Positions 1-11,509 of a stretch of 11,509 bases of DNA are shown here, in pieces. Below the pieces are notes generated by a model. It worked only from the letters and a program-made list of their open reading frames with translations, searched no databases and was not told the origin of the DNA. Source of the stretch: a virus (Duplodnaviria; Heunggongvirae; Uroviricota; Caudoviricetes); IMG/VR virus record IMGVR_UViG_2663763232_000007, positions 1 through 11,509 of that record. One strand, 5' to 3'. The position numbers and the translations under genes were made by a program. Positions within the stretch are counted from its first letter, which is position 1; each line of letters begins with the position of its first letter.

Positions 1-46
1 AACAATTTGAAAACAAGAACCTCGCTTAGGCCTGTGTCCATATTAC

Positions 47-556
47 GTGGGTAGGATCACTGATCCTACATTGCGAAGTCAGTTTTTTCAGGAATTAATG
101 AATGGTCTACGCGGTTATGAGACTGATGACGTAACAAAAGTCGAATTAAATCGCAGTACTGATGCTAGTGAGGATGAAGACAAGGAAGAAACTATTGATA
201 CCGGATTTGTTAAGAAAGCCGTCCTTAATGGTGAAGGGGTAAATAGTTCAGCTATATTTTCTCAACTACATGAGAAAGGTTATTATATCGGGCGTATTGC
301 ATGGTCTTCAAAGCCGACAAGTGGAATTGGAGACAGAATCAACGTCGAAGCATTTTTCAAAGACTCAGAAAAATGCTGTGACTTTGCCTATCAAATTAAA
401 GGTATAAACAATCAAAAAGAAGACGGTTTCAATGTAACCATTCGCGCGGCAACGGCACAAGAGAAAAAACATATTAGTGAATTAATTGAGTCCGCCGCTG
501 AAAATGCCTATAATATAATAATAGGATCAGAGGTGAACGAAGATGAAAAAGGTTAA
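47..556 (+). CDS. Hypothetical protein, acidic (169 aa from GTG at 47; 152 aa if the ATG at 98 is used); accessory cargo of unknown function
   Basis: Long ORF in AT-rich DNA. GTG at 47 has no obvious SD but overlaps a TAG at 52..54 that closes an upstream open frame; ATG at 98 is preceded by AGGA. No motif I recognise. Confidence 0.5.
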   Translation: MGRITDPTLRSQFFQELMNGLRGYETDDVTKVELNRSTDASEDEDKEETIDTGFVKKAVLNGEGVNSSAIFSQLHEKGYYIGRIAWSSKPTSGIGDRINVEAFFKDSEKCCDFAYQIKGINNQKEDGFNVTIRAATAQEKKHISELIESAAENAYNIIIGSEVNEDEKG

Positions 557-1282: not shown

Positions 1283-1313
1283 GTAGGCGTCAGAATCAAG
1301 TTCTGACGCCTAC
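1283..1313. terminator. Perfect 13-bp stem / 5-nt loop hairpin between convergent transcription units; candidate bidirectional terminator
   Basis: gtaggcgtcagaa-tcaag-ttctgacgcctac read directly; lies between the + strand cargo operon (stop 1226) and the - strand DinI-like gene (stop 1322). Followed on + strand by aatgtttcttaat, only a weak T tract. Confidence 0.45.
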
Positions 1314-1321
1314 AATGTTTC

Positions 1322-1555
1322 TTAATGCAGCCAGCTATCGTCCTCCCACACCTTCTGCATAATTTTCATCACTTGTTTTCTTTCTTCGTCCAGTTGCAGT
1401 CCGGTCAGTTCCACACCGTTAGAGCTACCTTTGCGGATACGAATTACCGTTTTGGGATACAGGGGGCGCAGATTGCGGTAAAGCTCGGATTCAAGGGCGT
1501 CCAGGGTAGACTGGCTAATTTTCTGCTCTTTATCGATCATTATTTCAATGCGCAT
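1322..1555 (-). CDS. DinI-like protein (77 aa), equivalent to the DinI-like part of a 186 Tum-type SOS antirepressor module
   Basis: Translation from the internal ATG reads MRIEIMIDKEQ...VWEDDSWLH, matching the length and the MRIE start of E. coli DinI as I recall it. GAGGTG SD 8 nt upstream. The track ORF 1322..1627 extends upstream in a frame overlapping the preceding gene. Confidence 0.7.
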   Translation of the reverse strand: MRIEIMIDKEQKISQSTLDALESELYRNLRPLYPKTVIRIRKGSSNGVELTGLQLDEERKQVMKIMQKVWEDDSWLH

Positions 1556-1565
1556 AAAAGTCACC

Positions 1566-1754
1566 TCAGCTGATGACATCCATTGAGCGGTTGTATTCGT
1601 GGCTTCTGATTTTTGCCATGAGTTCATCAGTCAATTCAGAAACCCACTGCAGAGCCAGCCCCTTCTCTTCATCACTACACTCACTAGCCGCTACAAGCTT
1701 AAGAAAAAAATCAATGCGCTGGAGCTTCAAAGACTCCAAAAAATAGTCCTGCAT
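1566..1754 (-). CDS. Small protein (62 aa), first gene of the LexA-controlled module; possibly the N-terminal partner of a split Tum-like antirepressor
   Basis: ATG start (MQDYFLESLK...) preceded by AGGAGG at 5 nt; stop lies 10 nt upstream of the DinI-like ATG. The track ORF 1566..1856 extends upstream across the promoter region. Confidence 0.5.
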   Translation of the reverse strand: MQDYFLESLKLQRIDFFLKLVAASECSDEEKGLALQWVSELTDELMAKIRSHEYNRSMDVIS

Positions 1755-1795
1755 TTTTCCTCCTATGACACCACAAGCAATACTGTACACATAAC

Positions 1796-1815
1796 CACTG
1801 TTTATATTTACAGTA
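1796..1815 (-). promoter_or_regulatory. LexA operator (SOS box) overlapping a candidate -10 of the promoter for the 1754..1322 module
   Basis: cactgtttatatttacagta = CTGT-N8-ACAG with an AT-rich spacer, close to the consensus taCTGTatatatatACAGta; about 45 nt upstream of the ATG at 1754. On the - strand, TTTACA and TATACT flank it as possible -35/-10. Confidence 0.6.
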
Positions 1816-1907
1816 TATAATAATCTTACTGATGTAAAACGTTTTTTTACGTTCATCAGCCTGATATGCCTGGTATTATTAAGAGCACGAATTGTTAACC
1901 CGCGTAA

Positions 1908-4322
1908 TTAATACAGATCCCGCCACTTATCATCTTCCTGCAAACGCTGGTTCCGATAGAAGATACGCAGGCCTGCTCCTGACGGAATACTGCCGCCGCG
2001 AAGGAGTAAATCGACCTCTTTCTCGCTGCCATCAAATCCTCTGGACTTCAGTTCATAGACGAGCTGCTGTCGTTGATGGTCTGTAATTCGCTGTTTGTAG
2101 TCTCTACGCCGTTTCGGTTTCACCAGGCGTAACCTTGCAGCCAGTTCCCGGCGTTCTTTTTTGTTCATACTGTGCAGGTAATCGTGCAACTCCTTGTCAT
2201 CCATACGGGTGATATCCGTTCTGGTATCCCCATCAGCTGATTTGTCTTTCCCTTGTTGGTACAAATTTTCAGCAAGGGGACAGTTATTGCCACGAGTCCA
2301 AGGGGCGCAAGCGCCCTGGTCGGCTGCCGCCTCCTGAACGTCAACGGCTTTACGAACCATTTTCCACTTCACTGCATGAGTGCAGATCTTGCCCTCTGCA
2401 ATGGGTGACCAGATGCCATAAATACGAATGCCGTGATCGCCATAGGCGGTCGGCTCTTCGTTGATTTCATAAGCGGTTCTGATGAGGTGATATTTACGGG
2501 GAACCAGTACGCCGCCCTGCTTCATGATGTAGGTGGCAAAACAACCAGCATCAGCAGCAGCCAGGATGGCATCAAGGCGCGGGTTATCCAGTACCGGCGC
2601 ACCTGCTTTTTTGTCCCCCTGTTGCCTTGCCGCCTGACCAGCCAGCAATCGCAGTTCACGGTAAGCCTGACGCCCCGGAATGCCAAAGAAGCGGAATTGC
2701 TGAACACGATGCAAAGACGCCCAGGCATTCACGTATTCAGCGTTATCACGCAGAGATTTACCCGTTTCCTTGCTGATCTCGCCAGCCAGACCACGCCCGT
2801 CAATGTTCTTACTGATGTATTTCGCTATGTAGCTTGTCGGCGTTCCTTTGCGCGGGTTAATCAGCTCAGACTTAAAGCGCGGCCCCGTGTTATTGCCCAG
2901 CTCCTCGCGGTCTTCACGGATAGCAAACTTACGCAACAATGCAGTAATGGCTCGGCGGTCTTTTTTGCGCATGAAACACAACAGGTGCCAGTGAACTGTG
3001 CCGTCGTGATGCGGCTCAGCCACCCGCACGCCATACCAGCGCAACCCGGCTTTGTGCATCGCCTTACGAAATGCAGCAAACATACCGACCAGATAATCGC
3101 TGCTTTGTCTTACCGTCGCATTTGTCCAGGTCGGGTTGGGCCTGCCGTTATTTAGCGTGGAATGGAAACGTGACGGACAGGTGATGGTGTAGAAAACGGC
3201 GCAGTCACCGCGCATTTCCGCGATAAGCTCCAGACCTTTAACACAGGCCATCATCTCATTGCGGCGATGCGCAGGGTTGCTGCTGCTGGCGTTTACCACA
3301 TCCTCCATGTCCAGCGTGTCGCCGTCTTCGTTCACCAGTTCATGAGAACGGAAAAACTCCAGCGACTTACGGCGCTGCTCACGTTTATGCAACACGGCTT
3401 CATAGCTGACATAGGGAGATGCTTTTTTGCTGACAAGGCAGACAGCACGCAACTGCTCTTCCCGCCATTCGCAACGCATCTTCCATAATTTCCGATACCA
3501 CCAGTCGGCGCACAACATACGCGCCAGCGAACCCGGAATGAGTTCATAGGGCACGGGTTTACGGCGGTTCCTTTTCCGACGGAGTTGCTCAAACGCAGGC
3601 GGGATGACATCCAGACGCAGGGTTTCTGCTGCCACCTTTTCCCATGTCTTGCGGATTTCTTCTGGCTTAACGTCATCGGTGGCATACAAATCGCCACAAG
3701 CTGCATCAAGGCACATGCTCATATGCGCAGCAACAAGGGTGGACAGGCGTTTCACCTGATCCTGACTCATTTCAGGCAGAATCAGCAGGCCGTCCAGCCC
3801 TTCATGGCTTGCCATAAAGCGAAAAGAAGTGGATAGCTGACTGTCGCGTACATGCTCCAGCCGTTCCAGACATGGCTTAATCGTCTCACGCAAATAGCGG
3901 GAATAAGCCTTTGGCCTGCCAAGGCTGCTGAAGTATTCAATACGTTGCATCAGCGGCTTGCTGATATGGGAGGGCTGGGCGCTGACGTCTGCCAGAATGA
4001 CCATGTCCGGGTTAAAACGCTGCTGCTCATGCGCCAACTTTGCCCGGCTAATGAGCTTATCCTGCTCCATTTCGCGCTGGACAGGATCACGGGATTCATT
4101 AAAGAAATAACGCTCCCAAACCTGATCACTCAGTGCCTCGCGGCGCAGTTGTTCCTGCTCGTTATCGGCAGCGTACAGAGTGATCAGGTTTGAAAGCGCA
4201 GAAACCGGCGCAACTTCCGCCGGGTCCAGATAAGGGTTAATGGCCTTTTTCGGGCTGTTCCATGAGAACGATGCGGCAGCTTCGTTAAAGCCGCAGCAGT
4301 TGTTCATATCGGCATGACTCAT
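1908..4322 (-). CDS. A: Rolling-circle replication initiation endonuclease, P2 gpA / 186 A family (804 aa)
   Basis: Contains VHWHLL (HUH-type metal-binding motif) and YIAKYISK (paired catalytic tyrosines three residues apart), as in P2 gpA-family initiators. ATG start overlaps the dam stop as ATGA. Confidence 0.9.
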
Positions 4323-6213: not shown

Positions 6214-6723
6214 TCACAGCAAACCGAATGAAGCACCGAGGCCAGTTACAGTATCAACTGCACTTGCCATCACAGGATTAACCTGTAAACGGGCCTGCAA
6301 TGAAACAGCAGCTAACGCCATCAGTCGTGTAACAGAGTTAATGCTGCTGATAGCATCACGACGACCTGCACTGGTTTTTACATCGCCAGATACCGCACCT
6401 GCAGCAACACGCCCGATCTCTGCGGTTGCACTCATGACGTAATGTGGCAGTTTCTCTTTTGCCACCTCATTAATCGGTACACATGGCAGGCAGTGAATCT
6501 GTGCCAGAAAACCGTCTACCAGCGTTGAATCTTCCGTCAGATCGGTAAGTAGCCAGATATCTGGCGCATTGAGCTGATGCGGTTGATCTGGGTTGAGTTT
6601 GTTTCGCAGAGTCTGGACATTCATTCCTGCACGTTCTGCCAGCTTCGCCATATTGTGGCGTAGTGCAAAAGCTCTACAGGCTTCATCAAAATGCGGATGT
6701 TTGGAAATCTTGTAATCAAACAT
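6214..6723 (-). CDS. cII: CII-type transcriptional activator of lysogeny (186 CII family, 169 aa)
   Basis: Same length as 186 CII as I recall it, same position after apl, and an N-terminal HTH-like segment ([19 protein letters not shown]). ATG preceded by AAGGGGG. Confidence 0.8.
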
Positions 6724-7123: not shown

Positions 7124-7756
7124 ATGATACAGGTAAAAGCTGGCGAGAATACAGGGGGAAGAGAGGCTATCCATAGACTAATGGCAGCCTATGATTTCAA
7201 GTCCAGACAGCAACTTTGCGATCACTTAGGCGCATCAAAAAGCACTATGGCAAACAGATACTTAAGAGATAGCTTTCCCGCAGAGTGGGTGATTCAGTGC
7301 GCCTTGGAAACAGGAGTTTCTTTACTGTGGCTAACCACCGGACAAGGCGAGCCAGGTTCAAAAATTGACCCTAAAAAAAATATCAATTCTGTGAACTCCA
7401 GCAGGGTTAAACCTCTTTCTGAGCTTGTATCTCCTGAAATTGACAAGGCAACTCTCAACGGTGGTTTATTGGTCGATGCTGGAAAAGCAATCATTGATAG
7501 CAGCATACTCCCCTCAGACTCAAGCAACCTGCTGCTGGTGAGTACTTCTGGTGATTCTTATTTAATAGATCGCAACCAAACACCACCAGTAAATGGTACG
7601 TGGTTAGTGGACATCGACGGGATAAAAAGCATTGTAAAATTGACACGACTCCCGGGAAACAGATTAGTAGTGCATCAGGATGATTCATCGTTTGAGTGCG
7701 AACTGGATGACATTGAGGTAATAGGTCGCGCACTGAAAATTATTAAGAGCCTTTGA
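7124..7756 (+). CDS. cI: CI-type immunity repressor (210 aa from ATG 7124; 191 aa if the ATG at 7181 is used)
   Basis: N-terminal HTH ending in LLWLTTGQGEP, plus a C-terminal domain; divergent from apl; stop is 1 nt before the int ATG (TGAtATG). AGGA lies 7 nt before ATG 7124. 186 CI is about 192 aa by my recollection, so the start is uncertain. Confidence 0.75.
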   Translation: MIQVKAGENTGGREAIHRLMAAYDFKSRQQLCDHLGASKSTMANRYLRDSFPAEWVIQCALETGVSLLWLTTGQGEPGSKIDPKKNINSVNSSRVKPLSELVSPEIDKATLNGGLLVDAGKAIIDSSILPSDSSNLLLVSTSGDSYLIDRNQTPPVNGTWLVDIDGIKSIVKLTRLPGNRLVVHQDDSSFECELDDIEVIGRALKIIKSL

Positions 7757-7757
7757 T

Positions 7758-8783
7758 ATGACCATCAGAAAACAGCCGAACGGAAAGTGGTTATGTGAAT
7801 GCTACCCAAACGGAAGAGATGGCAAACGCGTACGCAAACAATTTGCGACGAAAGGCGAAGCCATTGCGTTTGAGAATTTCACCATGGATGAGGTAAACAA
7901 GAAACCTTGGCTGGGAGAAAAGGAAGATCGGCGACAACTGTCAGAAGTGATTGAGCAATGGTATTCCCTGTACGGTCAGACACTCGCTGACCCTAAGCGA
8001 TTAATGGCTAAGTTAAAAATCATTTGTAATGGACTTGGCGATCCCATCGCTTCTGAATTGACAGCAGGTGATTTCACAAAGTACCGGGAAGCCAGATTAA
8101 AAGGTGAGGTCAAAAACGAAGATGGCGTGCTCATGTCACCGGTTAAGCCCAGAACGGTGAACCTTGAACAGCGTAACCTATCCTCAGTTTTTGGCACACT
8201 GAAAAAGCTGGGGCATTGGTCTGCACCCAACCCCCTCGCCGGTCTGCCAACTTTCAAAATTGCAGAAGGTGAACTGGCGTTCCTTGCTGCTGATGAAATC
8301 AAACGCCTGCTTGACGCATGTGCTGAATCTCAAAGTCCCAGTCTGCTAATGATTGCCAAGATTTGCCTGGCTACCGGGGCAAGATGGAGCGAAGCCGAAA
8401 ACCTGCAAGGTAACCAGATATCAAAGTATCGAATTACCTATACCAAAACAAAAGGAAAGAAAAACCGAACTGTTCCTATTTCTCAGGAACTGTATGAAGA
8501 ATTACCCAAAAACAGAGGAAAGTTATTCACACCATGCCGAAAGGCTTTTGAGCGTGCGGTAAAACGAGCTGGAATTGAACTACCTGAAGGTCAATGTACC
8601 CACGTTCTGCGCCACACTTTCGCCAGTCACTTTATGATGAACGGCGGAAACATTTTGGTATTGAGGGATATTTTAGGACACGCTGATATTAAAATGACCA
8701 TGATTTATGCCCATTTTGCACCGGATCATCTGGAAGATGCCGTTACCAAAAATCCACTTCATAACCTCAACTGGCATCGCTAA
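7758..8783 (+). CDS. int: Tyrosine integrase, P2/186 family (341 aa)
   Basis: C-terminal catalytic region HVLRHTFASHF...LGHADIKMTMIYAHF (H-x-x-R and catalytic Tyr); size and position after cI match P2/186 Int; reads into the att site. Confidence 0.9.
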   Translation: MTIRKQPNGKWLCECYPNGRDGKRVRKQFATKGEAIAFENFTMDEVNKKPWLGEKEDRRQLSEVIEQWYSLYGQTLADPKRLMAKLKIICNGLGDPIASELTAGDFTKYREARLKGEVKNEDGVLMSPVKPRTVNLEQRNLSSVFGTLKKLGHWSAPNPLAGLPTFKIAEGELAFLAADEIKRLLDACAESQSPSLLMIAKICLATGARWSEAENLQGNQISKYRITYTKTKGKKNRTVPISQELYEELPKNRGKLFTPCRKAFERAVKRAGIELPEGQCTHVLRHTFASHFMMNGGNILVLRDILGHADIKMTMIYAHFAPDHLEDAVTKNPLHNLNWHR

Positions 8784-8788
8784 TAAAT

Positions 8789-8836
8789 GGCGGCACTTTG
8801 GCGGCAGAGCACTAAAAACAAGTAAAACAAGCAAAC
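8789..8836. repeat. Short direct repeats in the att arm (GGCGGCA x2; AAAACAAG x2), possible Int arm-type or host-factor sites
   Basis: GGCGGCA at 8789..8795 and 8800..8806; AAAACAAG at 8815..8822 and 8824..8831; AT-rich context between the int stop and the att core. Confidence 0.3.
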
Positions 8837-8900
8837 ACAGATTAACACTAACATCATGATTTAAAATGAAAAAATATGATTTCGTTAGTGTAAAAATGGT

Positions 8901-8944
8901 ATGTAGGAATTTCGGACGCGGGTTCAACTCCCGCCAGCCCACCA
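8901..8944 (+). ncRNA. ssrA: 3' terminal 44 nt of ssrA (tmRNA), T-arm and acceptor 3' strand ending in CCA; att core shared by the prophage and the downstream island. Not a complete tmRNA gene
   Basis: atgtaggaatttcggacgcgggttcaactcccgccagcccacca matches the 3' end of E. coli ssrA as I recall it (one position differs). Upstream sequence is the int 3' end and AT-rich arm, not the tmRNA body. Confidence 0.8.
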
Positions 8945-8991
8945 AAATTCTCCATCGGTGATTACCAGAGTCATCCGATGAAGTCCTAAGA

Positions 8992-9023
8992 GCCCGCACG
9001 GCGCAAGCCCTGCGGGCTTTTTT
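8992..9023 (+). terminator. Rho-independent terminator (ssrA terminator)
   Basis: gcccgca-cggcgcaagccc-tgcgggc followed by TTTTTT, 48 nt after the CCA end. Confidence 0.7.
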
Positions 9024-9078
9024 GTGCCCTCACTTTGTCCCGCGAAGTCCGAAGAGAACTAATTAAATCCGAACCTTT

Positions 9079-9128
9079 TAGGCCCATTGATAGGCCCAAC
9101 GAAAAGCTCTATTGTTTTCGTTGGGCCT
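9079..9128 (+). promoter_or_regulatory. Direct repeat TAGGCCCA x2 overlapping a perfect 14-bp stem / 9-nt loop hairpin in the intA upstream region
   Basis: TAGGCCCA at 9079..9086 and 9091..9098; stem aggcccaacgaaaa (9092..9105) pairs with ttttcgttgggcct (9115..9128); ends 20 nt before the intA ATG; no T tract follows. Confidence 0.35.
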
Positions 9129-9147
9129 AAACGCATGGAGACTCCCC

Positions 9148-10389
9148 ATGGCAAGAAAAACCAAGCCGTTAACCGATACGGAAATCAAAGCCGCCAAACC
9201 TAAAGATGCCGATTACCAGCTATATGATGGTGACGGGCTTACTCTGTTAATCAAGTCCAGTGGTAGTAAGCTCTGGCAATTCCGTTACTATCGACCTCTG
9301 ACAAAACAGCGAACCAAGCAAAGCTTCGGAGCCTACCCTGCTGTCTCCCTTTCTGATGCGCGTAAACTCAGAGCTGAATCTCGAGTTTTATTGGCGAAAG
9401 ACATTGATCCTCAGGAACATCAGAAAGAGCAGGTTAGAAATTCTCAAGAGGCTAAAACCAACACTTTCCTGTTAGTTGCCGAGCGTTGGTGGAATGTGAA
9501 GAAAGCCAGCGTAACAGAGGACTATGCCGATGATATCTGGCGCTCGCTTGAGAGAGATGTTTTCCCAGCAATCGGTGATATCAGTGTCACCGAGATTAAG
9601 GCTCATACTCTGGTTAAAGCAGTGCAGCCGGTTCAGGCCAGAGGTGCATTAGAGACTGTTCGCCGCCTTTGTCAGCGTATTAACGAAGTCATGATTTATG
9701 CTCAGAACACAGGCCTAATTGATGCTGTTCCCAGCGTTAACATCGGGAAAGCATTCGAGAAACCGCAGAAGAAAAACATGCCTAGTATCCGCCCGGATCA
9801 ACTTCCACAATTAATGCAGACTATGCGCACGGCAAGTATCAGCCTGTCCACACGATGCCTGTTCATGTGGCAACTTCTAACCATCACCCGCCCTGCCGAA
9901 GCTGCTGAGGCTCGATGGGATGAGATCGATTTCAATGCTAGCGAATGGAAAATTCCTGCAGCTCGAATGAAGATGAACCGGGACCATACGGTTCCACTAT
10001 CTGATGGGGCTCTTGCTATTCTGGAAATGATGAAGCCTCTCAGTGGTGGCCGAGAATTTATCTTTCCTAGCCGTATCAAGCCCAACCAACCAATGAATAG
10101 CCAAACAGTGAATGCAGCACTCAAGCGTGCTGGCTTAGGAGGTGTACTTGTTTCACACGGCTTGCGTTCTATCGCCAGTACGGCACTCAATGAGGAAGGA
10201 TTTCCACCTGATGTCATTGAAGCAGCGCTTGCTCATGTAGACAAAAATGAGGTGCGTCGCGCTTATAACCGCAGTGATTATCTTGAGCAACGTCGTCCGA
10301 TGATGCAATGGTGGGCTGATTTTGTAAAAGCAGCAGATAGCGGCAGTATCGTTAATAGTGGGGTTAGGGGAATACGGCTTGTGGGATGA
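9148..10389 (+). CDS. intA: Tyrosine integrase of the CP4-57 (IntA/SlpA, ssrA-targeting) type, 413 aa
   Basis: From ATG 9148 (GGAGA SD) the protein begins MARKTKPLTDTEIKAAKPKDADYQLYDGDGLTLLIK, matching CP4-57 IntA as I recall it; C-terminal HGLRS...RRAYNRSDY catalytic region. The track ORF starts 12 codons earlier at TTG. Confidence 0.85.
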   Translation: MARKTKPLTDTEIKAAKPKDADYQLYDGDGLTLLIKSSGSKLWQFRYYRPLTKQRTKQSFGAYPAVSLSDARKLRAESRVLLAKDIDPQEHQKEQVRNSQEAKTNTFLLVAERWWNVKKASVTEDYADDIWRSLERDVFPAIGDISVTEIKAHTLVKAVQPVQARGALETVRRLCQRINEVMIYAQNTGLIDAVPSVNIGKAFEKPQKKNMPSIRPDQLPQLMQTMRTASISLSTRCLFMWQLLTITRPAEAAEARWDEIDFNASEWKIPAARMKMNRDHTVPLSDGALAILEMMKPLSGGREFIFPSRIKPNQPMNSQTVNAALKRAGLGGVLVSHGLRSIASTALNEEGFPPDVIEAALAHVDKNEVRRAYNRSDYLEQRRPMMQWWADFVKAADSGSIVNSGVRGIRLVG

Positions 10390-10447
10390 ATCCTTTATCA
10401 GCACCCATAATGGGTGCTGATAATTCAACTATTAATAATACGGGCTT

Positions 10448-11326
10448 TTATCCTGTGACTTTCTTTTTTCTAGCAACTGTATTATCTAAAGCCAATTTGA
10501 TACTTTCAATATTTCTTGACCAGTTTTTAATAATGGTATCTTCCAAAGCATCTTGGCTCATTGTTGCGATACGATATTTTTTACTTTCATTATTAATGTC
10601 AAAATTTGACTCTTTAATAAAGTCCCACAAAGGATCAATGAGAGCATTTACCGCAGCTGCTTTACTTTTCCACCCACCTTCAGGAACAGATTCATTGATC
10701 AAATAAACAAGTTTATCTTGAATTACTCGATATACTTCCGCTTTACTGCTCCCACCTTGTTTTCCGGCTTTAGCTCTAACATGGGATAATTTTTTTTGAG
10801 CACATACAGAAACATGAAACCATGACATACCAATACATCTATCAAATAATTCAGAAGATTTAATGAATGCTTTAATAGCAACACACTCATTCTCTGACAT
10901 AACTGATTTTCCCCATTGATAAGACATCGAGGCAAAAAATAGATGTGATTTAAACACATCATTAATTAAAAAAGGATCCTGAATAAGATGAGAAAATGTT
11001 CCCCTGAAAATACGTGACTTTAACTCTTTCCAGCATTCCTGAACTGGATCATATAATTCAGCATATTCCTCTATTAATTGACCCACTCTGTCACCAGTAC
11101 AATATTTATACTCTTCATGAGATGGAGCACTATACAAAACCACACGTGTTCCTACCTTATCAGAATTCCAGAACTGATCTCGCATTTCGCTTAGTTCCTT
11201 CAGTATCGCAGGATAACTTTCGCTGAGCATATCAATGTATATGTCCCAATCACATTCGACCATCTGCCCAGAAAGACAAACCGATTTTTGACTAATTTCT
11301 TCGCAAAACTCAATCGCTGTCAACAT
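10448..11326 (-). CDS. Hypothetical protein (292 aa from the ATG), AT-rich orphan cargo gene next to intA
   Basis: Long ORF in roughly one-third G+C DNA, convergent with intA; ATG at 11326 (track ORF begins 6 codons earlier at TTG). No motif I recognise. Confidence 0.55.
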   Translation of the reverse strand: MLTAIEFCEEISQKSVCLSGQMVECDWDIYIDMLSESYPAILKELSEMRDQFWNSDKVGTRVVLYSAPSHEEYKYCTGDRVGQLIEEYAELYDPVQECWKELKSRIFRGTFSHLIQDPFLINDVFKSHLFFASMSYQWGKSVMSENECVAIKAFIKSSELFDRCIGMSWFHVSVCAQKKLSHVRAKAGKQGGSSKAEVYRVIQDKLVYLINESVPEGGWKSKAAAVNALIDPLWDFIKESNFDINNESKKYRIATMSQDALEDTIIKNWSRNIESIKLALDNTVARKKKVTG

Positions 11327-11509
11327 AAAAACACCAAATATCAATTAGTTAAGTGTTGTAAAAAATGTATTTTTGGTACGCGGATTTTTTGCATTAATGC
11401 TTGCCGCTAATCTTTCTACAACCAAAATGAACTAACGAGAGGCAATCAAGTGATCTTGACCCTCCATCTCCGAACAGCTTTTGTATCTTAAGTTAACGAT
11501 GTCCGCTGC

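Follow-up and report, generated by a model that had tools for sequence, protein, structure and literature searches.

Prophage induction by a LexA-controlled antirepressor has been described for phage 186, whose Tum protein acts by stoichiometric sequestration of the CI repressor (PMC7708051). The 186 record annotates Tum with the function 'inhibits CI DNA binding', and Shearwin 1998, in the form in which it is cited in PMC3121763, is given as the source for Tum binding CI and keeping it off its operators without cleaving it. The 146-aa protein unites two modules in one polypeptide, an antirepressor part followed by a DinI-like part, and it is expressed from the promoter p95, located after gene A with a LexA box over its -10. 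According to the 186 record, an internal GTG additionally gives rise to the DinI-like part (Tum residues 71-146) as a product of its own, which carries the annotation 'truncated Tum - modulates SOS induction'.

An arrangement in which the two modules are separate genes was noted by 2011, when Lemire 2011 described the tum genes of Fels-2 and PSP3 as split by a stop codon (PMC3121763). The relevant passage of that paper credits Bunny et al. 2002 together with information communicated personally by G. E. Christie, and it assigns the antirepressor activity of PSP3 to the upstream gene alone, a second-hand statement that goes back to personal communication. The PSP3 record names this upstream gene tumA, described as 'similar to 5' end 186 tum; UV induction of prophage', whereas the downstream gene is named tumB and described as 'similar to dinI and 3' end of 186 tum'. 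Other LexA-controlled small antirepressors are encoded by the dinI-gfoA/gftA operons of Gifsy-1/2/3 and, as AntC, by N15 (PMC3121763). In the Gifsy prophages, non-polar deletions of dinI leave induction unaffected, and antirepressors are documented to act across prophages in the case of Gifsy and Fels-1 (PMC3121763).

More recently, the Phollow paper gave the name tum to locus tag ECHS_RS04495 of DuoHS, a P2-like prophage of E. coli HS, and a knockout of this gene was reported in 2025 (PMC12055606). The locus tag itself is annotated as a 62-aa 'hypothetical protein'. After mitomycin C, neither the delta-tum strain nor a lexA(Ind-) G85D strain showed lysis, virions or viral foci (Extended Data Fig. 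1, PMC12055606).

Here, we examine a locus in an 11,509-nt stretch of viral DNA (IMG/VR record IMGVR_UViG_2663763232_000007; henceforth termed the window) that is very probably the SOS induction operon, tumA-tumB, of a Fels-2-type, 186-like P2-family prophage. A sequence-only reading of the same DNA had treated the two-gene arrangement as though it were new, whereas the split tum is already known, is very common, and has been both described and experimentally examined (PMC3121763, PMC12055606).

Layout and control of the operon

The genomic context is the 186-type switch of a P2-family prophage, with CI, an Apl/Cox-like protein, CII, Dam methylase and gpA all encoded in the window (Table 1). 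Within this context the operon is placed directly downstream of gpA, i.e., 3' of gene A, and under a LexA box; the proposal that the module occupies the position of 186 tum thus agrees with what we find.

Table 1. Features of the tumA-tumB operon and of the surrounding switch region (positions in the window).
Feature	Position	Strand	Remarks
-35-like hexamer TTTACA of the candidate SOS promoter (186 p95 equivalent)	1833..1838	-	5/6 positions as in TTGACA; 17 nt 5' of the LexA box
Alternative -10 candidate TATACT	1812-1817	-	
LexA (SOS) box TACTGTAAATATAAACAGTG	1796..1815	-	overlaps the -10 region
-10 candidate TACTGT	1810-1815	-	first hexamer of the LexA box; position of the annotated -10 in 186 p95
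Shine-Dalgarno AGGAGG of tumA	1759..1764	-	read from the sequence
tumA, putative 62-aa antirepressor	1566..1754	-	ATG at 1754, stop TGA 1568-1566
Shine-Dalgarno GAGGTG of tumB	1562..1567	-	overlaps the tumA TGA (1566-1568); 6 nt before the ATG at 1555
Weak hairpin	1560-1577		encloses the tumB Shine-Dalgarno
tumB, 77-aa DinI-family protein	1322..1555	-	Pfam PF06183
14-bp G+C-rich hairpin	1283..1313	.	between tumB and the convergent cargo genes; terminator scan
gpA, 804-aa replication endonuclease	1908-4322	-	SOS operon directly downstream
CII	6214-6723		
cI, 186-type immunity repressor	7124..7756	+	presumed TumA target; from the ORF list
Integrase	7758-8783		

The LexA box, TACTGTAAATATAAACAGTG, departs from the consensus TACTGTATATATATACAGTA at three positions (17 of 20 agree) and has perfect CTGT and ACAG arms, which places it among the enterobacterial SOS boxes, that is, CTGT-N8-ACAG palindromes close to the consensus. 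No match of this kind appeared in 200 dinucleotide shuffles, and the site is unique within the window. The box is real, a chance origin being unlikely. The near-consensus operator over a candidate -10, upstream of a 62-aa ORF, that the sequence-only reading had reported is confirmed at the stated coordinates. Such a box over a promoter directly 5' of the gene is the configuration of the 186 Tum-type antirepressors.

The promoter itself was assigned by analogy with the annotated p95 of 186. Its -10 is a poor match to TATAAT, and an automatic sigma-70 promoter scan of positions 1150-2000 returned no promoter at its stricter thresholds. Compared at the sequence level, the -35-like hexamer and the LexA box reproduce the annotated p95/LexA architecture of 186. 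Each of the 14 loci examined has a LexA box 5' of its tumA homolog, with 1-4 mismatches and ending 15-41 nt before the start codon. A TT[TC]ACA hexamer is located 17-19 nt 5' of the box in nine of these loci, among them 186, where it is annotated as the -35 of p95. The set comprises the window, 186, Fels-2, PSP3, DuoHS, ENT90, YenM324, ESSI-2 and six loci of distant homologs from metagenomes or genomes, with protein identities to the window TumA down to about 35%. The DNA flanking the LexA boxes is divergent and not alignable across the 14 loci.

Between the LexA box and tumA lies a leader of 41 nt with AGGAGG at its end. For tumA, 62 aa is the right length because the conserved Met1 of the family alignment sits at the ATG at 1754. 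A longer ORF of 96 aa starting from the ATG at 1856 was rejected, as it would overlap both the promoter and the LexA box and would begin upstream of this conserved methionine. The stop codon of tumA and the start codon of tumB are separated by exactly 10 nt (1565..1556), and the two proteins add up to 139 aa (62 + 77). That a complete DinI-like ORF with its own GAGGTG Shine-Dalgarno sequence follows the 62-aa ORF at this distance had already been proposed, and coordinates and family assignment bear it out. The overlap of the tumB Shine-Dalgarno sequence with the tumA stop codon, together with the weak hairpin around it, is compatible with translational coupling of the two genes.

Homology to Fels-2 and DuoHS stops at the tumB stop codon. 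The G+C-rich hairpin that follows is likely a bidirectional terminator that closes the operon, in the position of t95a in 186. The cargo 3' of tumB differs from phage to phage: the window carries a convergent defence cassette, DuoHS a same-strand hypothetical gene, and Fels-2 again different genes, while the downstream orf97 of 186 is absent from the window.

TumA and TumB compared with the two parts of 186 Tum

TumB is readily recognized as a member of the DinI family. It matches the full Pfam DinI profile PF06183 (positions 1-63 of 63; E 6.6e-23) with 81.3 bits against a gathering cut-off of 24.2 bits, and it also matches PDB 1GHH (E 2.7e-6). TumB is identical to Fels-2 STM2726.1 (100%) and shares 78% identity with PSP3 TumB and 29% with E. 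coli DinI. Against the NCBIfam equivalog model for host DinI, NF007893, it reaches only 42.7 bits, below the cut-off of 111. These scores identify TumB as a phage paralog within the DinI family, not as host DinI. TumB further aligns to residues 71-145 of 186 Tum with 41% identity (E 3e-24), in line with the DinI kinship of the C-terminal part of Tum that the sequence-only reading had pointed out. By family membership, TumB would probably act on RecA filaments.

For TumA, the relationship to Tum is visible by profile methods only. BLASTP gave no alignment between the 62-aa protein and 186 Tum, and Pfam and NCBIfam returned no family model and nothing meaningful for TumA; taken alone, the blank BLASTP result would have suggested that the 62-aa ORF is unrelated to Tum. 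This impression was overturned when a TumA family profile built from 25 diverse members was compared with 186 Tum by hhalign, which matched residues 3-44 with a probability of 95.7% (E 8.7e-9). In an independent PHROG search, 186 Tum matched phrog_698, the family of TumA, over residues 7-44 (E 2.4e-5). Both proteins share a core in which a hydrophobic helix leads into a turn that holds a conserved Cys, followed by the motif C-x6-[IL]-A-[LI]-x-[LW]-[IV]-[AS]-[ED]-[IL], the last recognized by eye. The family profile, the PHROG match and the shared core thus mark TumA as remotely homologous to the N-terminal half of 186 Tum, the antirepressor part. The alignment to 186 Tum that had been suggested as a check is favorable for both window proteins, directly for TumB and through profiles for TumA.

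The AlphaFold2 model of TumA is a two-helix hairpin (helices 2-23 and 28-61; mean pLDDT 88.5) with the conserved Cys26 in the turn. Foldseek searches with this model returned generic helical hairpins only, every one with E >= 1, and a sequence search of the PDB with the TumA profile gave no match.

Separate tumA and tumB genes among phages and E. coli genomes

The closest counterpart of the window operon is that of DuoHS. Both proteins are identical (TumA 100%; TumB as the DinI-like ECHS_RS04500), as are the promoter, the LexA box and the tumA-tumB junction, and the operon occupies the same position after gpA. Fels-2 of Salmonella LT2 (STM2728 and STM2726.1) shares an identical LexA box and junction and a TumA that is 96.8% identical. 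In PSP3, the same two-cistron layout is found under a LexA box after gene A, with a tumA-tumB gap of 3 nt; PSP3 TumA falls into another subfamily, phrog_1993, to which the window TumA family is linked weakly (E 0.002 to 0.003; hhalign E 0.0028, probability 11%). The more distant operons of the Gifsy prophages and N15 AntC resemble the window in combining, under LexA repression, a small antirepressor with a DinI homologue and in leaving the repressor uncleaved; they differ in that dinI comes first, that antirepressors and repressors are unrelated to those of the window, and that the phages are lambdoid.

Searches of complete E. coli genomes revealed the 539-bp module in 1,125 of 5,426 genomes, mostly at 95-99% identity and always annotated as 'DinI-like family protein' next to 'hypothetical protein'. 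This prevalence bears on the idea that a 186-type tum was broken by a frameshift or nonsense mutation and that the two ORFs are pseudogene fragments. The combined length of 139 aa, close to the 146 aa of 186 Tum, and the same order of parts would fit such a decay. However, the junction has a proper Shine-Dalgarno sequence and ATG, the arrangement is the same base for base in Fels-2 and DuoHS and recurs throughout the genomes above, TumA belongs to a family of 53-73-aa proteins that extends across Enterobacterales, and the 62-aa gene is functional in DuoHS (PMC12055606). We give this explanation practically no credence. The sequence-only reading had listed a frameshifted tum beside a natural split antirepressor and an antirepressor accompanied by a DinI paralog; the first is rejected, as the two-cistron form is conserved and prevalent with its own Shine-Dalgarno sequence and ATG and stand-alone tumA genes exist, and the other two agree with the data.

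Three architectures can be distinguished. The fused form is found in 186 and its close relatives, and separate tumA and tumB cistrons occur in the window, Fels-2, DuoHS, PSP3, L008 and L009. In a further eight loci (L004, L006, L007, L010, L011, ENT90, YenM324 and ESSI-2), tumA is followed directly by the convergent ogr/portal genes, with no dinI gene. Among 67 cluster representatives retrieved with TumA as query, mostly 50-100 aa long, none resembles a fusion to a DinI domain; longer matches were few, and those inspected were upstream extensions or spurious. Because tumA occurs without a dinI partner in eight loci, the antirepressor module is taken to be self-sufficient. On this view the DinI-like module is an accessory that phages can do without, and 186, with its fused protein, is the exception.

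Experimental evidence comes from the DuoHS deletion. Primers NHR24 (reverse complement GTGGTGTCATAGGAGGAAAGATGTGA) and NHR28 (ATAGGAGGAAAGATGTGAGGTGACTTTTATGCGCATTG) join the ATG to the TGA of the tum ORF (PMC12055606), i.e., the deletion is in-frame, and it keeps GGTGACTTTTATGCGCATTG, the start of the DinI-like gene, together with its Shine-Dalgarno sequence. Since induction was lost with the DinI-like gene intact, TumA is required in DuoHS and TumB alone is insufficient. The failure of the lexA(Ind-) strain to induce likewise indicates that LexA cleavage is required; what this result shows is dependence on LexA cleavage, not direct binding of LexA to the box. From the identity of the DuoHS protein, we infer that TumA is the antirepressor required for SOS induction of the window prophage.

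The same deletion leaves room for TumA and TumB to associate into a 186-Tum-like protein in which both subunits are needed for induction, as it proves only that TumB alone does not suffice. Both parts form one polypeptide in 186, and the 10-nt gap with the tumB Shine-Dalgarno sequence over the tumA stop codon suggests coupled, equimolar synthesis. Against a two-subunit antirepressor stand the eight tumA-only loci, all of which have a LexA box and lack a dinI gene 3' of tumA, the passage in PMC3121763 that credits PSP3 antirepressor activity to the upstream gene alone, the separate production of the DinI-like part by 186, and the Gifsy dinI deletions without effect on induction (PMC3121763). 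We regard joint action of this kind as very unlikely; TumB is best viewed as an accessory whose presence does not suffice for induction and is not, in general, needed for it.

For the tumA-tumB operon as an SOS induction module, we propose the following course of events. In the lysogen, host LexA would occupy the box over the -10 region and keep the operon off. Upon DNA damage, activated RecA would promote self-cleavage of LexA and thereby allow transcription of tumA-tumB. TumA, a predicted helical hairpin, would then bind the prophage CI stoichiometrically, so that CI would be released uncleaved from the lytic promoter and lytic growth would follow, while the accessory TumB may tune the SOS signal through RecA filaments.

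Pairing of TumA with divergent CI repressors

A further question is which CI is bound by TumA. The window CI is 44% identical to that of DuoHS and 58% identical to that of Fels-2, and identities range from 30 to 58% across 186, Fels-2 and DuoHS. Phages with a TumA 97-98% identical to that of the window encode CI proteins that are only 40-58% identical to the window CI, i.e., TumA identity is decoupled from overall CI identity.

This decoupling raises the possibility of an orphan module: recombination would have joined a Fels-2/DuoHS-type operon to a heterologous immunity region whose CI is not inactivated by TumA. As a consequence, the prophage would not be inducible, or the only targets of TumA would be co-resident P2-like prophages, reached in trans. 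In favor of a mismatch, the TumA that is 100% identical in DuoHS is paired there with a CI of 44% identity (34% in the C-terminal domain), and cross-talk of the kind documented for Gifsy and Fels-1 (PMC3121763) provides a precedent for action in trans. Yet near-identical TumA proteins are found with many CI variants among phages whose genomes were deposited as complete and viable, which argues that TumA works on all of those CIs, and a conserved RD-FPA[ED]W[VI]IQC-LETG stretch in these repressors could provide a shared docking surface. The operon itself, with its two ORFs and its LexA box, is moreover intact. A mismatched operon is therefore improbable in our view, and TumA would bind the CI of this prophage, probably via the conserved N-terminal domain.

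Conservation within CI is uneven. In phages with TumA at least 84% identical to that of the window, identity to the window CI is 62-100% in the N-terminal domain and 34-82% in the C-terminal domain. The corresponding values are 56-59% and 26-35% for the ESSI phages (TumA 41-49% identical), and 40-42% and 33-37% for PSP3 and 186, which have no BLAST-detectable TumA similarity. The RD-FPA[ED]W[VI]IQC-LETG stretch is near invariant in the group with TumA identities of at least 84% and differs in 186. This pattern is compatible with docking of TumA on the DNA-binding N-terminal domain of CI, and it could equally reflect shared ancestry. That TumA is a broad-specificity antirepressor docking on this stretch, rather than on the divergent C-terminal oligomerisation domain, is a tentative reading that we consider possible but doubtful.

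As a discovery, the operon matters little; what it offers is of use for annotation and for the question of which CI proteins TumA recognizes. In RefSeq, roughly one in five complete E. coli genomes carries the 62-aa antirepressor as a 'hypothetical protein'; some TumA homologs bear the erroneous name 'levan regulatory protein', the label of the fused 186 Tum mentions DinI alone, and the PHROG families that hold TumA proteins, phrog_698 included, are marked 'unknown function'. Together, tumA and its LexA box offer a simple predictor of the SOS-inducibility of a P2-like prophage. If TumA does recognize the N-terminal stretch of many CI variants, this would pin down the CI domain recognized by Tum-type antirepressors, which we did not find documented in the literature consulted, and heteroimmune relatives that share a cell with a Fels-2-type prophage would be cross-induced when that prophage undergoes SOS induction.

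Stand-alone tumA genes and their annotation

The published phage genomes of ENT90, YenM324 and ESSI-2 each carry a LexA-boxed tumA-type open reading frame (ORF) alone after the replication gene gpA. This ORF lacks annotation in YenM324 and ESSI-2, and the annotated start of the ENT90 ORF overlaps the LexA box. The YenM324 protein shares 44% identity with the N-terminus of 186 Tum and has the conserved Trp of the TumA family; judged by its sequence, it is a bridge between the 186-type and Fels-2-type subfamilies.

For tumA, gene callers often report a 96-aa product starting at ATG 1856 (window 1566-1856, minus strand; likewise protein entries P0001 and P0004, among others), a call that spans the -35 element and the LexA box. 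Some records label TumA as a 'levan regulatory (domain) protein', and for 1,125 E. coli genomes RefSeq gives it as a 'hypothetical protein'. In PHROG, the families concerned (698, 1993, 8554 and 37919) are each listed as 'unknown function'.

The tumA-tumB junction and the region downstream

At the junction of the antirepressor gene tumA and the DinI-family gene tumB, a small hairpin, GTCATCAGCTGAGGTGAC (window 1560-1577, minus strand), covers both the stop codon of tumA and the Shine-Dalgarno sequence of tumB. It is kept in Fels-2 and in DuoHS, the E. coli HS prophage, and may serve to link the translation of tumB to termination on tumA.

Homology among related prophages ends exactly at the tumB stop codon (window 1283-1322; equivalent positions in loci L002, L013, L008 and L009), and the cargo beyond it differs phage by phage. 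Fels-2 and HS have a hypothetical gene on the same strand, L008 a cassette of genes with GAPS4 Pfam domains, L009 a DUF6575 gene, and 186 has orf97. The region downstream of tumB is a variable cargo hotspot.

In the window itself, a defence-type cargo cassette occupies positions 1-1226 on the plus strand, convergent to tumB. Its two ORFs (see table) are 99-100% identical to genes of L008, where their counterparts adjoin genes matching the Pfam families GAPS4b_N (weakly) and PDDEXK_GAPS4. Since the Hp2 ORF comprises the C-terminal part only and the window begins with an IS3 end, the Hp2 gene is broken by IS3, and the system is probably dead in this prophage.

Features at the two ends of the window
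Feature	Position	Strand	Remarks
IS3 element end	1-58		element present 12,665 times across E. coli genomes
Hp2 partial ORF	47-556	+	covers only residues 194-359 of PADLOC Hp2 (PDLC03005), its C-terminal 166 aa
Hp3 ORF, 227 aa	543-1226	+	PADLOC Hp3 (PDLC03006) match, E 2e-157
Second integrase gene, P4/intA-type, 425 aa	9112-10389	+	directly after prophage integrase
ORF, 298 aa	10448-11344	-	no PADLOC match

At the opposite end, window 8784-11509 may hold a second integrative element, lying in tandem with the prophage at one site. No tRNA gene was found within the window.

Pairing of TumA with the CI repressor

When the window's immunity repressor gene cI (7124-7756) and its tumA were compared with loci L013-L024, the TumA proteins proved 97-100% identical, yet the partner CI proteins are only 40-58% identical overall. 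Within this group, the C-terminal domain of CI is far less conserved than the N-terminal domain. This pattern points to either a broad-specificity antirepressor, which would be aimed at the CI N-terminal domain, or mismatched TumA-CI pairs.
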